Assembly: GCA_951406725.2 (NCBI GenBank)
Contig: OX597823.1
Coordinates: 27,838,001 to 27,902,000, forward strand
Source: Octopus vulgaris
Lineage: Eukaryota
Direction: 5' to 3'
DNA: 64,000 nt
Below are positions 7,085 through 61,487 of this stretch, in pieces (within the stretch, counting starts at the first letter, position 1; every line of letters starts with the position of its first letter). The notes under the pieces were generated by a model. It was given only the letters and a program-made list of their open reading frames with translations, did no database searches and had not been told where the DNA came from. The position numbers and the translations under genes are program-made.

Positions 7085-8214
7085 AAAATTACATTAGAAT
7101 ATCTTGAAATACTAAATTTATTGAATAGAATCGCGACCTCTAGACGACTTCTGAATCTCCTGCAACTCTTCTACACAGCCTCTTTGTTTAAGTTGCTGAA
7201 CGTTGCCATAATCCTTGCCTTCTGTTTATCTTTGGTGTTACAAGGAGTTATAATAATCAAGGGGTTTGCAGTCTGGGATGTTAGGTGGCCAGATGTTAGA
7301 GGTGGTTTGGTCGCAGAAATTGTTTGACAGCCATGACTGGGTTCTCCTACTTGTGTGACATGGTGCAGAGTCCTGTTGCCAGACATAGGGTGTTCCAGCA
7401 GTCACCCTCTTGACCCAGGTCAGCACTACCTCTTTCAGGCACTTGATGTAGGCCCCCGTGTTGAGTCTGAGGCTGTGTGGGAAGACGAATGGAAGCTTAA
7501 CGTCGCCATCACTAGTGATCACTCCAAACACCATGATGTTGACTAGATGTTTGATTTTTATCACTCTCAGTACATGTTTTGGGGACACGCCAAGCCAACG
7601 GTTGTTCACCATCTGATCCTGGTAGAAATTTTTCTCGTCTGAGAAAAACTAAAGCATGTTCGATTGGAAGGTGTGCTTGAGTTTCTTCAAAAGCATCGTA
7701 GCGCGGTCTTTCCTCTTGTCCTTGATGGTTTGGGATAAAAATTGGCCCTTTCTCATCTTTTATGAGGAATATCGAATGTCTTCATGCGCTAACTCCCATA
7801 TCCCTAGCGATGGACCTGATTGACTTGGAAGTATCGTTGTCAATCATGGCCTGGATCTCACCAACCAATTCCGGAGTATTTTTCTTATCAGAACGATAAG
7901 AGTGAGTTTTCAGAGCTGCCCTACCTTCTTAATTAACATTTTTCTCATCCAACTCCTTCCGAATCCTCTGCACTGTCCTCAGATTGCCACCTACACACTG
8001 AAATGTTCGTATTGGAGCTTCCGGTGCGACTTCCAAGCAGTACAGCATGTCATTTCCCAATTGCTGTCAGAGTGAATTGCGTCATGGTGCTGGTTTTCTC
8101 ACAGACGGTACCCAACTGATCCTACTATACTGTGTTGTCGACAAAATAAAAAAATAAAAAAAACATGCGAAATTAAAAATATAAAGTGTCGACAATTTAC
8201 CATCGCATCCTGCA
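7082..8214 (-). mobile_element. Tc1/mariner DD37D (maT) transposon, decayed
   Basis: FSDEK...MVFGVITSDG...WQQDSAPCH...WPPNIPDCKPLDYY with 37 residues between the second and third D; TIR-like CAGGATGCGATGGTAAATTGTCG at the right end; (TA)n on both sides. Confidence 0.9.
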
Positions 8215-8299: not shown

Positions 8300-8525
8300 T
8301 CTTTGTAGACTAATTCTTGCATAGAAGAGTCAATGGCATGGTAGCGTTGATGGAAGACGAGGTTGATTTTAGCAACCTTTCTCTTCTGACGTTTGATTTC
8401 TTCCTTTGCTCTTCGGGTGGCTTCGAAGTTTTTCTTTGCGATGGCGATGGAGCACCGCCACTTGTTACAGTTTCGGGCTTGTGTTTCAAACGATTTAGGC
8501 TCAATTCCAGTGGCTTTCAGTGTTG
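8300..8525 (-). mobile_element. RTE-clade LINE ORF2 3' fragment
   Basis: Minus-strand frame TLKATGIEPKSFETQARNCNKWRCSIAIAKKNFEATRRAKEEIKRQKRK resembles RTE C-termini. Confidence 0.65.
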
Positions 8526-9031
8526 TTTTGAGTTAGGCTTTGTATGTAACCATATAATAGTTCTATAAGTATAATATGTATATTATTTTATGTGGTGGAT
8601 ATTAACTAGAATCTGTTTTTTTTTCTGTCTTTGTATTAATCCCGTCTAAGTGCAATGTCCATTTCTCTTTTTTTGTGTGTTGACGCGATTAAAGTATTCT
8701 TACAAAAATAAAAATAAAATTGTTGCTGGTCGTGTGGAAATATCCATTGACAAAACATTTAACTTACTTTGATGTAGTTTTACTTAAATGCTTTGGAAAT
8801 TATGTAGTCTTCTGCTATTTGTAAGGAACAATGTGTATTTGGCGAATGTTTACTAAAACCTATATAACTTGGTGAATTCTCGTGAGATTATTGGAAGTAC
8901 TCGATTGGTGAAGGAGCAATGTGTAGTTGATGAATGTTTAGTCGGTGCTTTCGTCAACTCTAACTGAAATCTATATAACTTGGTGAAACGCTTCTTGTGC
9001 GATTAATTGAAGTGAGTCATTCATTGGTGAA

Positions 9032-9070
9032 TGTAGCTGATGATGAAGTAAGCGCGAAACATGTAACTCT
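9032..9070 (+). ncRNA. degenerate hammerhead motif in a Penelope-like terminal repeat
   Basis: CTGATGA...GC-GAAA-CATG-TA with palindromic stem III; stems I and II are damaged. Confidence 0.4.
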
Positions 9071-9504
9071 TATGGTTTATCACACTTGTCAAATAGAATT
9101 GTTTAGTTCCTCAGTTATTTCAGAACATCTGTTATTGTAATCACACCGTATATATTTCAGGTAAGACAAAGGTATCAGAGAAAACTAGTCATTTTAATAC
9201 CTGCGCTTAGTCTTTGGCTAGCAGGCTTAAACCATCGCTCAGTTGAACACATCTAAACGATCCTTTTGTGGTGATTTTAATCTGTTGTTCAACATAACAT
9301 CACCTCCTGGTCTTTGGATTTTGCTTTTAGCGGTCAACTTAGTTTTAAGCATTCGGTTCAGAACTCCGACCTCGGAATACGTTCTCCCATTTCTCCCACC
9401 ACTCACTTGAGTTCCGCACTCCAACAGTTATCTCCCTTGTTTGGCTAAACCTAAATATCTTAAAAACAATCTACACTACAAATAAATATGCAGAAAAAAG
9501 ATAA

Positions 9505-22367: not shown

Positions 22368-22817
<450 letters not shown>

Positions 22818-35683: not shown

Positions 35684-36071
35684 TACTCTTTTACTTGTTT
35701 CAGACATTTGACTACGGCCATGCTGGAGCACCGCCTTTAGTCGAGCAACTCGACCCCGGGACTTATTCTTTGTAAGCCCAGTACTTATTCTATCGGTCTC
35801 TTTTCCCGAACCGCTAAGTGACGGGGACGTAAACACACCAGCATCGGTTGTCAAGCAATGCCAGGGGGACAAACACAAACACACACACACATATATATAT
35901 AGATATATATACATATATACGACAGGCTTCTTTCAGTTTCCGTCTACCAAATCCACTCACAAGGCATTGGTCGGCCCGGGGCTATAGTAGAAGACACTTG
36001 CCCAAGATGCTACGCAGTGGGACTGAACCCGGAACTATGTGGTTGGTTAGCAAGCTACTTACCACACAGCC
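35684..36071 (-). mobile_element. SINE family A
   Basis: Near-consensus copy. Confidence 0.92.
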
Positions 36072-36145
36072 AAATTATTTTTTTTCATTTTAACCTATTT
36101 TCAATCATTTGTAAAAATTTAAAAGTGATATTCGGAAATTGGTAA

Positions 36146-36535
36146 GTGTGGTAAGTAGCTTGCTTATCAACCACATGGTTCCAGGTTCAGTCCCACTGCG
36201 TGGCACCTTGGGCAAGTGTCTTCTACTATAGCCTCGGGTCGACCAAAGCCTTGTAAGTGGATTTGGTAGACGGAAAATGAAAGAAGCCCGTCGTATATAT
36301 GTATATATGTACGTGTGTGTATATATTTGTGTGTCTGTGTTTGTCCCCCCAACATCGCTTGACAACCGATGCTGGTGTGTTTACGTCCCCGTAACTTAGC
36401 GGTTCGGCAACAGAGCCCGATAGAATAAGTACTAGGCTTACAAAGAATAAGTCCTGGGGTCTATTTGATCGACTAAAGGCGGTGCTCCAGCATGGCCGCA
36501 GTCAAATAACTGAAACGGGTAAAAGTAAAAGAGTA
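36146..36535 (+). mobile_element. SINE family A
   Basis: Near-consensus copy, inverted relative to 35684-36071. Confidence 0.92.
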
Positions 36536-37245: not shown

Positions 37246-37797
37246 CTTTACTCTTTTACTTGTTTCAGTCATTTGACTGCGGCCATGCTGGAGCACCGCC
37301 TTTAATCGAGCAACTCGACCCCGGGACTTATTCTTTTGTAAGCCCAGTACTTATTCTATCGGTCACTTTTGCTGAACCGCTAAGTAACGGGGTCATAAAC
37401 ACGCCAGCATCAGTTGTCAAGCAATGCTAGGGGGACAAACACAGACACACAGACACTTGCCCAAGATGCTACGCAGTGGGACTGAACCCGGAACTATGTG
37501 GTTGGTTAGCAAGCTACTTACCACACAGCCAAATTATTTTTTTTCATTTTAACCTATTTTCAATCATTTGTAAAAATTTAAAAGTGATATTCGGAAATTG
37601 GTAAGACGCATATATATATATATACATATATACGACGGGCTTCTTTCAGTTTCCATCTACCAAATCCACTTACAAGGCTTTGGTCAGCCCGTGGCTATAG
37701 TAGAAGACACTTGCCCATGGTGCCATGCAGTGGGACTGAACCCAGAACCATGCGGTTGGTAAACAAGCTACTTACCACACAGCCACTCCTGCGCCTA
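37246..37797 (-). mobile_element. SINE family A with a 155-bp internal templated insert
   Basis: 37451-37605 duplicates 35992-36146. Confidence 0.88.
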
Positions 37798-39112
37798 TAT
37801 ATATTTTCTTTCTTCCTTTCTTTTCTTTTATTTCCCCCTCCTCTCTTTCTCACATGCTAAATTTTTACTTAAAATTAAATCTGTGAACTTCTTAGACATG
37901 TCCCAAACTGCTGTCCCAGTGCTTTTTTCAGTTTCACAATCATATATGATAATGTTGGCGGTGCACTTTATTATGCTTCGGCAGTTTTTAGAAGGCAACA
38001 CCAGTTTTCCCTGATGCGATGTTTATAAATTTAGGATTTGTACCAGCTTCGGTCTTCATTATTATAATGATATAATTATAAATGTTACCTTTTTTTTTTC
38101 GTCTTAAATTTGGAAAAGTAATCAGAAAATGGAGACCCCCCCCCAAAAAAAAAACTTAATTTCCAATTTAAAATTTATTTTATTTTTCTTCCATTCAGAT
38201 ATCCAACATGACAAGAATCTTTCAAGACAAGATTTCACCAAACTTAAAAAAGTAGGTCCTTTGTTATTATTTTTTTTGGGGATTATAGTTTTTCAATTTT
38301 TTTTTTTAGTTTTAATTTTAACTGTAACTAATCAACATTAACTAAAATCAATACCAATCACAATCTAATAATATTGATTTTTTAACACTGGTATAAAGCC
38401 ATCACACATTTCATTCTTTACCTTCTTTTTAGGCCCCAGAAAGTTAGAATTATTTCTCACTGAAGTGTGTGTGTGTGTGTGTGTGTGTGCGTGCGCACAC
38501 ACACACACACACACACGTGTGCTTGCCTTGCTTGTTTCAGTCCAGATGAGCTGACAACAAATTCCACTCCCAACTTCATTAGTTAATCTCAGGAGGATTT
38601 GAATTCATGTTATTATAATGATGCATTTATCATCATCAGTTTTAACGTTCACTTTTCCATGCTTGCATGGGTCAGAAGGAATTTGGGGTGAAACAAAGGA
38701 TAGCACTTGTGTGACAGTGACACTCATTTACACCTAAATCATGAGTCAAAGTGAGCAAGGAGATTACAACACACACACACACAGGCAAATTGGTGGTGAT
38801 CGGTGAATTCCAGAAAAGAAACACAAACAGTAAAAGTCATCTGGATGTACACAGGATGGCACTTGGTGATAGTTTTTGATGGAAAATTAAAAGTAAAAAC
38901 ATGATGTTTCGAACATTGACTCTTTGTGGGTTAGTAGAAGAAAGTCTAGAGAAGAGGAAAAGGAGGAAGGAATGGCTATTTTGGAGAAAAGCATGTGGGT
39001 CACTACATGGTCAAAAAATTACACAATGGGCTTCTTTCAGATTCTGTTTACCAAGTCTCCTCACAAGGCTTTGGGTGGCCTGTAGCTATAGTGGAAAACA
39101 CTTGCATAAGAT

Positions 39113-39517
39113 AATTACTATTTGTAAATCTTACAACGAGAGATATTTAGCAACAGTACTTTGTAGTACTCCAAAATACTGTTGCTGAATATCTCTCATT
39201 GTGAGATTTACAAATAGTAATTTTCTAATTTATAAATCAGTGACTAGTTGTCACTTTGAAAACTATATATTTTAGCTGTGTCACCTCTAGCCAAACAATT
39301 ATTCTGAGCTGATGAAGGGAAATAACCCGGAAATCGTGATACACAGATATTGTTTTGAGCTTAGTGGGGCTGCTAGATTCCCTTGTTCGAAAATATGACA
39401 CTGATTGTGACGTATAGCCAGCTGGAGACGATGTCTCCTGGGGCTAAATTAGAGCAACATTTGTCCTAAACCAGGACTGCCATTTTATGTTGGCAAACAA
39501 TCTTTACTCCACTACTC
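39113..39517 (+). mobile_element. 405-bp hairpin-plus-hammerhead retroelement inserted in a SINE A
   Basis: 14-bp TSD CACTTGCATAAGAT at 39099-39112 and 39518-39531; 110-nt palindrome; hammerhead motif. Confidence 0.85.
39304..39346 (+). ncRNA. type I hammerhead ribozyme motif
   Basis: CTGAG-CTGATGA-A-GGG-aaataa-CCC-G-GAAA-TCGTGA-TA-CACAG; full CUGAUGA and GAAA core, one stem I mismatch. Confidence 0.7.
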
Positions 39518-39949
39518 CACTTGCATAAGATGTCACACAGTGGAACTGAACCTGGAAGCAGGTGATTGCGAGATAAGATTCTTATCACCCAGCCATGCCT
39601 GTACTTCCTGTAGATTTATGTAGTTTTTTTGATTCATTGAAGAATCTACTCATTGAATTAACATATGATGTGGTTGAGTATTCCACAGATACTTGTACTT
39701 TTAATCTAATTCTCAGGTGTCTGAGTGACACTGTGTGACTAAGTTTGACTTTTGAATTTCAGGTCCAATCAATTCATTGAAATTCTACACAGTTTCTGAC
39801 TCACAGTTTCTCTTACAAGACTTTGGCATATGTCTTTTTCCATAGCTTTCGGTCAACCAAAGATACAAGACACCATGAAGTGGAATCAAACTTGCCAGAC
39901 AGACAGAAGTCTGATAAGCTCTAACTAAATATCAAAGAAGATTTTTTTT

Positions 39950-40557
39950 TTATGCTCCATGGTCATGTACTACAGATGGATGAGGAGAGATGTATGAAGA
40001 AGCGCCACTCCCAAACAGTTGAAGGAATCTGGGGTAGACGTAGACTCAGGAAGACATGGGATGAGGTGGTCAAGCATGACCTTCGAATGTTGGGCCTCAC
40101 AGAGGCAATGACAAAAGACCGAGACCTTTGGAGATATGCTGTGACTGCAAAGACCTGACCTGCTGTGCTTGAGGAGACCTATTGAGTCAAGTACATCAAA
40201 ATAAAAATCAAATGGAAATTGTAGTTGTGATACCCGTGCTGGTGGCACGTAAAAAGCACTATCCAAATGTGGCCGATGCCAGCGTCACCTTGACTGGCGT
40301 CTGTGCCGGTGGCACATAAAAATCACCAACTGATTGTGGCCGTTGCCAGCCTCTTCTGGTCCCTGTGCACGTAAAAAGCACCCAATACACTCACGGAGTG
40401 GTTGATGTTAGGAAAGGCATCCAGCTGTAGAAACACTGCCAGATCAGACAGGAGCCTGGTGCAGCCTCCTGGCTTCCCAGATCCCAGTCGAACCCTCCAA
40501 CCCATGGTAGCATGGAAAACAGACATTAAACGATGATGATGATGATGATAATGATGA
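39950..40557 (+). mobile_element. RTE-clade LINE 3' fragment with (GAT)n tail (family E)
   Basis: GHVLQMDEERCMKK...RKTWDEVVKHDLRMLGLTEAMTKDRDLWRYAV* followed by a 3' UTR. Confidence 0.88.
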
Positions 40558-59489: not shown

Positions 59490-59700
59490 CACTGTAGACC
59501 AATCCTTGTATGGAAGAGGCGATGGCATTGATTGCACAGTAATGGTGGAGGACATGGTCAATTTTGCTGAGCCTTTCTCTCCTGTCGTTTGATCTCTTCT
59601 TTTTCTCTTCTAGTGGTTTTGAAGTTTTTTTTTTGTTCCAGTGGGGGAGATATATATGCCACAGAATCTGAGAAACTGGGCTTATAAGCCTATGGCTTGA
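59490..59700 (-). mobile_element. decayed RTE 3' fragment, same family as 8300-8525
   Basis: FKTTRREKEEIKRQERK versus FEATRRAKEEIKRQKRK; DNA similarity. Confidence 0.6.
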
Positions 59701-60431: not shown

Positions 60432-61487
60432 ATCCTAGCAGTTGAGGGAACCCGTGGAAGAGGTAGACCCAGGAAAACCTGGGACGAGGTGGTGAAGCAC
60501 GACCTTCGAACTTTAGGCCTCACTGAGGAAATGACCAGCGACCGAGACCTTTGGAAATATTCTGTACGTGAGAAGACCAGGCAGGACAAGTGAGCCCAGC
60601 CCACTTATGAATGCCTTTCCTCCCTTGGACACAAAGACCTGTTGGGGCAAGCGAAGTCGATATAGAACCTCATCCGACGACAGGCACCCATGCCAACCCC
60701 CTTTGCTTGCGAAGACATGTTGGGGCAAGCGAAATCGAAATCGAAGTCAAAATCGAATTGAACCAGCCAGGATCCCTGGTCTGGTGGTACGTAAAAAGCA
60801 CTATCCGACTCGTGGCCGATGCCAGCGCCGCCTCCACTGGCTTCTGTGCCGGTGGCACGTAAAATACACCAATCTGACCGTACGACAGGCACCCATGCCA
60901 ACCCCCTTGCTTGCGAAGACATGTTGGGGCAAGCGAAATCGAATTGAACCAGCCAGGTTCCCTGGTCTGGTGGTACGTAAAAAGCACTATCCGACTCGTG
61001 GCCGATGCCAGCCCCGCCTCCACTGGCTTCCGTGCCGGTGGCACGTAAAAAACACCAATCTGACCGTACAACAGGCACCCATGCCAACCCCCTTGCTTGC
61101 GAAGACATGTTGGGGCAAGCGAAATCGAAATCGAATTGAACCAGCCAGGATCCCTGGTCTGGTGGTATGTAAAAAGCACCATCCGACTCGTGGCCGATGC
61201 CAGCACCGCCTCGTCTGGCTTCTGTGCCGGTGGCACATAAAATACACCAATCCGACCGTGGCCGTTGCCAGCCTCGCCTGGCACCTGTGCAGGTGGCACG
61301 TAAAAAGCACCCACTACACTCACGGAGTGGTTGGCGTTAGGAAGGGCATCCAGCTGTAGAAACACTGCCAGATAAGACTGGAGCCTGGTGCAGCCTTCTG
61401 GCTTCCCAGATCCCGGTCGAACCGTCCAACCCATGCTAGCATGGAGAACGGACGTTAAACAATGATGATGATGATGATGATGATGAT
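60432..61487 (+). mobile_element. young RTE LINE 3' fragment (family E) with a triplicated unit of about 190 bp in the 3' UTR
   Basis: LAVEGTRGRGRPRKTWDEVVKHDLRTLGLTEEMTSDRDLWKYSVREKTRQDK*; tandem units at about 60678-61260; (GAT)n tail. Confidence 0.92.

Follow-up and report, generated by a model that had tools for sequence, protein, structure and literature searches.

A 338-nt unit with a predicted hammerhead inserted into a SINE: a probable non-LTR retrozyme with insertion marks of Penelope-like elements

The insertion at 39113-39517 of the window, the whole 64,000-nt stretch of Octopus vulgaris DNA analysed here, is probably one turn of a many-copy 338-nt hammerhead unit, an animal non-LTR retrozyme, which was inserted into a SINE by the enzymes of a Penelope-like element (PLE) acting in trans. 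The element behaves like an animal non-LTR retrozyme; this class and its link to PLEs have already been published. The insertion is composed of one loop turn (39167-39504), 7 nt of redundancy, 6 nt of a local 8-mer duplication and an inverted piece of 55 nt. An earlier note on the same letters had proposed a non-autonomous Penelope-type or retrozyme family, a reading that the data support. For its family unit of 405 bp including a hairpin there is no support: a unit measures 338 nt, and the hairpin is likely specific to this copy, an insertion scar rather than a fixed family trait.

The host SINE is interrupted at a target-site duplication (TSD). Its left half (39020-39098, 72/93 identical to the copy at 22657) and its right half (39532-39600, 61/83 identical to the copy at 22736), both without assigned strand, align to five other SINE copies in the window and abut exactly at the TSD. 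The two 14-bp copies of the duplication (39099-39112 and 39518-39531, both +) agree in 14/14 letters, so that the perfect TSD splitting a SINE stands as first described. Both copies carry the same three letters departing from the SINE majority. Such shared private letters would be expected of a duplication upon insertion into an already aged SINE. Loose ends reading through the SINE occur at 39105 and 39518 in all four public runs aligned. An assembly artefact is unlikely, since both TSD copies have the same private changes and a contig of run X3 covers part of the left junction. The left flank (38800-39000) is itself a low-copy repeat in the aligned runs, with a depth of up to 520 in X3 and several shared differences. 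A second copy of the element was not found inside the 64-kb window, and comparison within the window revealed no long direct repeat in the element, i.e. no LTRs. The 3' end (39505-39517, +) consists of 7 nt redundant with the unit start, followed by 6 nt of the local 8-mer duplication (39505-39512/39513-39520), which overlaps the TSD by 3 nt. The 'CTACTC-like tail' of the earlier note is this single duplication running 3 nt into the TSD and no family tail; 'CTACTC' as the tail of a LINE was rejected.

Part of the element stretch is held by 20 of the 24 public runs listed, and none holds half of its words. These runs carry the organism labels A-F and 'insect metagenome', with shares of 0.29-0.49 in the labels A-E (DNA or unclassified runs). 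Contigs of the runs X1, X3, X9 and X15 were aligned to 38800-39990 at 80% likeness. Left out were the insect metatranscriptome runs X19 and X20 (shares 0.07 and 0.04) and X16-X18, which are guessed to be RNA runs; the RNA status of X15 is likewise a guess. The contig results rest on the best 40 of 109 letter rows, 15 of 186 joints and 32 of 36,576 records. In the four runs, the depth of the lowest element bin exceeds that of the highest flank bin chosen by factors of 159, 184, 172 and 18, a ratio that excludes flank bins which are themselves repeats and is not a copy number. At 39362, one family letter occurs in 113-125 contigs of each DNA run. With single family letters present in over 100 distinct contigs of every such run, the element belongs to a many-copy family, found under at least five organism labels. 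Other copies, whose existence the earlier note had proposed to check, are present in public contigs.

The best-supported joint listed leads from 39504 back by 338 nt to 39167, in 15, 19, 14 and 6 contigs of the four runs. It is present in X15 and likewise in the DNA runs. Seven letters fit both of its sides, matching the 7-nt terminal redundancy. The position 39222|39223 is bridged with at least 31 letters a side by three of the 32 records listed, two of which are probably the same copy in two runs. Joint and bridging together yield a closed 338-nt loop map, which leaves no room for an ORF. The complete unit (39167-39504, +) is non-coding and has a GC content of 37%. Its predicted circular fold is 57% paired, with z = -2.6 over 60 shuffles. 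Neither complete dimers nor multimers occur in the short contigs of the four runs, where the joint has at most 42-44 nt on its shorter side; full tandems would follow from the head-to-tail joint. Six of nine listed records over 39274-39281 have 12-13 nt more, giving a second size class of about 350 nt. A depth dip at 39240-39319 was considered as a sign of tail ends and rejected, as it is explained by the 12-nt indel. The depth over 39400-39519 is 2.8-4.5 times that over 39320-39399, which may reflect 5' truncation or a longer relative sharing the 3' end. On the looped map, the left end of the insertion lies about 50 nt past its right end, and 90 contigs of X9 diverge at 39508. Joints at 39300/39349 were set aside, since they may reflect the self-complementarity of helix I (seven letters fit both sides). 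A loose end at 39448 in X3 (62 contigs) has a variant continuation, belonging to a subfamily or a relative with the same 3' end.

The inverted head (39113-39167, -) repeats, as its symmetry shows, the first 55 nt of the unit in reverse orientation, placed head-to-head with them and without a spacer. The right arm of the palindrome (39168-39222, +) lies on the looped map just beyond the usual 3' end and would be the analogue of a PLE 'tail'. The inverted arms of 51 nt with four mismatches are present as claimed and extend further, to 55 nt each around the centre 39167|39168, with five mismatches, four of them transitions. The fold of the 405-nt element is very stable (z = -12.2), and none of 100 shuffles was equally stable. 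In the family, the letters upstream of 39167 are those of 39504 (54 contigs) instead of the left arm. The fold-back centre is crossed by 0/32 records listed, a weak result as the contigs are short. In other copies from X1 and X3, the letters at 39294 and 39347 meet head-to-head (in X1 with 108 letters on the shorter side), and further inversion joints at 39217/39411 and 39350/39441 are among the joints listed. This copy differs from the family majority in at least 14 letters of 338 (a rough estimate of about 4.1%), of which three fall in the indel zone. At this rough divergence, ageing of the arms leads to 4.6/55 expected differences versus five observed, and an intact 14-bp TSD has a probability of 0.30. 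Arm divergence and TSD thus fit neutral ageing, which argues that the arms were probably made at insertion, and the hairpin is probably not a selected RNA structure. An X3 contig covering 38800-39142 continues from the left flank into arm 1, to 30 letters beyond the junction, with 12 other letters. It is one letter short of the bridging rule for junctions (at least 31 letters a side). According to this contig, the head is probably not private to the assembly, and the insertion is suggested to be common to another organism label.

A type I hammerhead is predicted at 39293-39355 (+), based on its layout and the family-majority letters at 39307 and 39337. All parts are on the plus strand. A distal helix I of 7 bp (39293-39299/39349-39355), followed by a small internal loop, precedes the helix I of 6 bp (39303-39308/39342-39347). 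The core is formed by CUGAUGA (39309-39315) and GAAA (39330-39333). An A.G occupies the base of helix II (39316/39329, positions 10.1/11.1), which has three G-C pairs and a 6-nt loop (39317-39319/39326-39328). A short helix III (39333-39340) is followed by the predicted cleavage site after 39341. Core and predicted site were located where the earlier note had placed them. A consensus lacking the core had been named there as a possible objection; the family keeps it. In the present copy, helix I is interrupted by a mismatch and helix III contains a wobble pair. The majority letters of the family are T at 39307 (depth 47492/48039 in X1, 99%), completing the 6-bp helix I, and C at 39337 (43384/53544, 81%), which turns helix III into a perfect palindrome. 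As the majority letters complete the helices, the hammerhead motif is a family trait. A hammerhead descriptor written post hoc matched only this site in the window, compared with 0.005 matches per 64-kb Markov control (200 controls). The Rfam search yielded no hammerhead match to the motif even at an E of 10. No majority change occurs at 39316 or 39329 among the listed rows (there are 69 further rows), and the change-type tallies of X15 at these positions leave no room for a change to a Watson-Crick pair. Judging from these letters, the family as a whole appears to carry this A.G at the helix II base. In the circular fold of this copy, the helices I and II form and the pair probability of helix III is 0.0.

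G10.1-C11.1 is highly conserved in hammerheads. The canonical metazoan type I motif has a 6-bp helix I, a helix II of four positions and a short palindromic helix III, and works as a dimer; the predicted hammerhead of the element fits this layout and not the minimal PLE layout with its long helix II (PMC4209133). A mismatch at the base of helix II has a precedent in the axolotl retrozyme hammerhead HHR_Amex2, which has a U.U there, in place of the A.G found here, and as a monomer still reaches 22% cleavage within an hour (PMC7229834). Cleavage failed in 8 of 9 predicted Xenopus retrozymes (bioRxiv 10.64898/2026.07.22.740005). The A.G variant escapes Rfam, which suggests that such families are undercounted.

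The longest stop-free frame of the element has 68 codons and the longest frame from an ATG has 28, in agreement with the claim that it lacks an ORF. None of ten chosen ORFs of the window was matched in Pfam, and neither a PLE partner nor an ORF with reverse transcriptase and GIY-YIG was identified among them. Consensus patterns for the pol III A or B box had no match in 39113-39517, and no tRNA was found in the window. Rfam gave no match at gathering level over the window, with weak generic hairpin matches only, and the miRNA matches to the hairpin were far below the gathering scores. Exact-pattern scans of viral contigs, metagenomes and prokaryote genomes yielded no match, nor did a blastn search of the element against phages.

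Described animal non-LTR retrozymes are non-coding, with units of 150-450 nt and a GC content under 45-50%, and the ORF-less unit with 338 nt and 37% GC falls in this range. They have a type I hammerhead with a short palindromic helix III, as is predicted for the element, and share with it a TSD of more than 4 bp and the lack of LTRs; length variants due to an indel occur in both, and solo monomers are common. Tandem repeats from dimers to multimers, self-cleavage in vitro and expression as self-paired circular RNA further characterise these retrozymes. Mussel retrozyme units measure 350-390 bp, those of the present family 338 or about 350 nt (PMC7229834). The A.G, the inverted head and the tail-like end set the element apart from the retrozymes as described (PMC7229834; bioRxiv 10.64898/2026.07.22.740005). 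Insertions of EN+ PLEs are marked by inverted head-to-head copies with junction palindromes, tails on one end and TSDs of 8-10 bp (PMC3846280; PMC8557442). The element resembles them in its head-to-head inverted copy, junction palindrome, putative one-end tail and variable TSD (PMC3846280; PMC8557442; PMC11167929), and in a 3' end located in A/C-rich sequence downstream of the hammerhead (PMC11167929). Unlike EN+ PLEs, it is an ORF-less, closed 338-nt unit with a predicted hammerhead of canonical layout; its TSD of 14 bp and its putative tail of about 50 nt exceed the 8-10 bp and 30-40 nt reported in the PLE papers. Similarity also exists to Chlamys PLEs, e.g. MRC1, which are non-autonomous, form pLTRs, lie head-to-tail and are moved by PLE enzymes. 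In contrast, these occur in green algae, mostly without canonical hammerheads, and were compared by description (PMC8557442).

Retrozymes are regarded as non-autonomous PLE derivatives with many solo monomers in a 2026 preprint by Li, Clavereau and Pollet, whose main text does not mention palindromes, tails or molluscs (bioRxiv 10.64898/2026.07.22.740005). The link between retrozymes and PLEs rests on shared hammerheads, co-occurrence and pLTR similarity, and the mobilising mechanism is left open (PMC7229834; bioRxiv 10.64898/2026.07.22.740005). A search for a cephalopod retrozyme in openly available main texts, including PMC7229834, PMC7761336 and PMC5680766, yielded only a count in the giant squid, with 235 Rfam hammerhead-1 matches (PMC6962438). 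PLE insertion marks on a probable retrozyme family with an unusual predicted hammerhead variant offer a direct way of testing the insertion mechanism. From an assembly alone, both the partner element and the circularity of the template could be tested through the inverted heads, the tails, the varying TSDs and insertion lengths of exactly one turn.

The proposed mechanism starts with the transcription of tandem copies. The predicted hammerhead, acting as a dimer via the palindromic helix III, would cut the RNA into monomers, which would be circularised. A PLE reverse transcriptase/GIY-YIG endonuclease would nick both target strands 14 nt apart, and each target end would prime cDNA at an internal site of its own, one near 39511 and the other at the position of 39222, about 50 nt away. 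One cDNA would have run a whole turn and the other 55 nt, both stopping at the unit position 39167. Head-to-head joining of the two cDNAs through a TA overlap would result in the palindrome. The predicted cleavage site is intact across the template, which points to a circle or an uncut multimer as template and not to a linear cut monomer. In experiments with a purified PLE protein from an anole, both target strands are cut and extended. Reverse transcription by this protein begins on uncut RNA, at two internal positions within an A/C-rich stem loop that lies downstream of the hammerhead, and insertion in vitro is independent of ribozyme cleavage (PMC11167929). Arkhipova et al. read PLE junction palindromes as self-priming on an antisense template (PMC3846280), an origin that may be compatible with the present data. 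The TSD, the split SINE, the many copies, the ORF-less closed 338-nt map, the helix-completing family letters and the inversion elsewhere are observed. The lack of a full dimer, the A.G at helix II, the missing Rfam match and the unpaired helix III in the circular fold count against the preferred reading. So do the Xenopus retrozymes that failed to cleave, PLE insertion in vitro without a need for cleavage, a TSD and putative tail longer than those of PLEs, the depth excess over 39400-39519 and the lack of a PLE ORF among the ten scanned.

As an unlikely alternative, the insertion may be the stump of an autonomous PLE, i.e. a 5'-truncated pLTR with an inverted tail and no independent small unit. 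PLE insertions are marked by an inverted head, a tail and a TSD (PMC8557442; PMC3846280), and most PLE copies are 5'-truncated (bioRxiv 10.64898/2026.07.22.740005); the 2.8-4.5-fold higher depth across the last 120 nt and the lack of full tandems in contigs of the four runs agree with a stump. However, the tail of an autonomous PLE runs into an ORF (PMC3846280), while the putative tail of this element leads back to the hammerhead in a 338-nt loop. This passage from tail to hammerhead is seen in the present copy and in 3/32 records listed. No frame exceeds 68 codons, and the predicted hammerhead has the canonical layout instead of the minimal PLE layout with a long helix II (PMC4209133). It appears quite improbable that a non-PLE LINE, e.g. 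RTE, mobilised the insertion as a SINE-like element whose 5' inversion arose by chance through twin priming or cDNA fold-back. In favour of a LINE, long TSDs are usual for RTE and L1, and a short duplication at the 3' end reaches 3 nt into the target. Against a LINE, the pol III boxes are absent from 39113-39517 and tRNAs from the window, the 3' end runs into the unit start in other copies and not into a simple-repeat tail, and the inverted piece duplicates the adjacent 55 nt, centred on the unit junction.

It is very improbable that transcripts of the family or a subfamily contain the hairpin as a fixed feature that provides dsRNA for Dicer or ADAR. Such a role would agree with the stable fold (z = -12.2), with the predominance of transitions among the arm mismatches (4/5) and with the X3 contig which takes the left flank of this locus 30 letters into arm 1. 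It is opposed by the 54 contigs in which 39504 precedes 39167, by inversions lying elsewhere in other copies, by an arm divergence equal to neutral ageing and by Rfam miRNA matches far below gathering scores.

A more specific version of the preferred retrozyme reading is tentative and rather doubtful. It envisages a cephalopod-type retrozyme with an active hammerhead, in which a sheared A.G replaces G10.1-C11.1, and Penelope priming of both target ends on two different RNAs, with one cDNA running exactly one lap of a circle and the two cDNAs fused head-to-head; the copy would then record directly how retrozymes are mobilised. Close to its centre, the left arm carries two letters of the X9 loose-end consensus at 39508 (90 contigs, agreement 0.44), and the other form of both is common to the right arm and the 3' end. 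These variants, present in one copy only, hint at two RNA templates rather than fold-back copying. If this held true, the circular-template model could be tested by counting, across the genome, lap lengths, fold-back centres and arm variants, a model which published work on retrozymes has only proposed.

Several further features were observed in the window. A Penelope-like segment (8304-9400) has a hammerhead-like core at 9037 with a palindromic helix III, in a layout unlike that of the hammerhead at 39293-39355. The claim that the element has no sequence kinship with this segment was confirmed, the best match near 9037 covering 11 nt (E 0.25). The segment contains a 50-nt internal repeat (8852-8898/8963-9013, 80%) and has a second partial copy at 59493-59633 (76%); neither an Rfam match nor an ORF family was found for it. 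An open frame at 7238-7648 (-) resembles a remnant of a Tc1/mariner transposase, and Pfam gave no match to it at an E of 0.01. A 155-bp stretch at 35992-36146 recurs at 37451-37605 with 100% identity, among nested and inverted SINE pieces. This duplication may be very recent or an effect of the assembly. A tandem array of units of about 190-205 nt, which are about 90% alike, is located at 60677-61310 inside a SINE-like repeat family.
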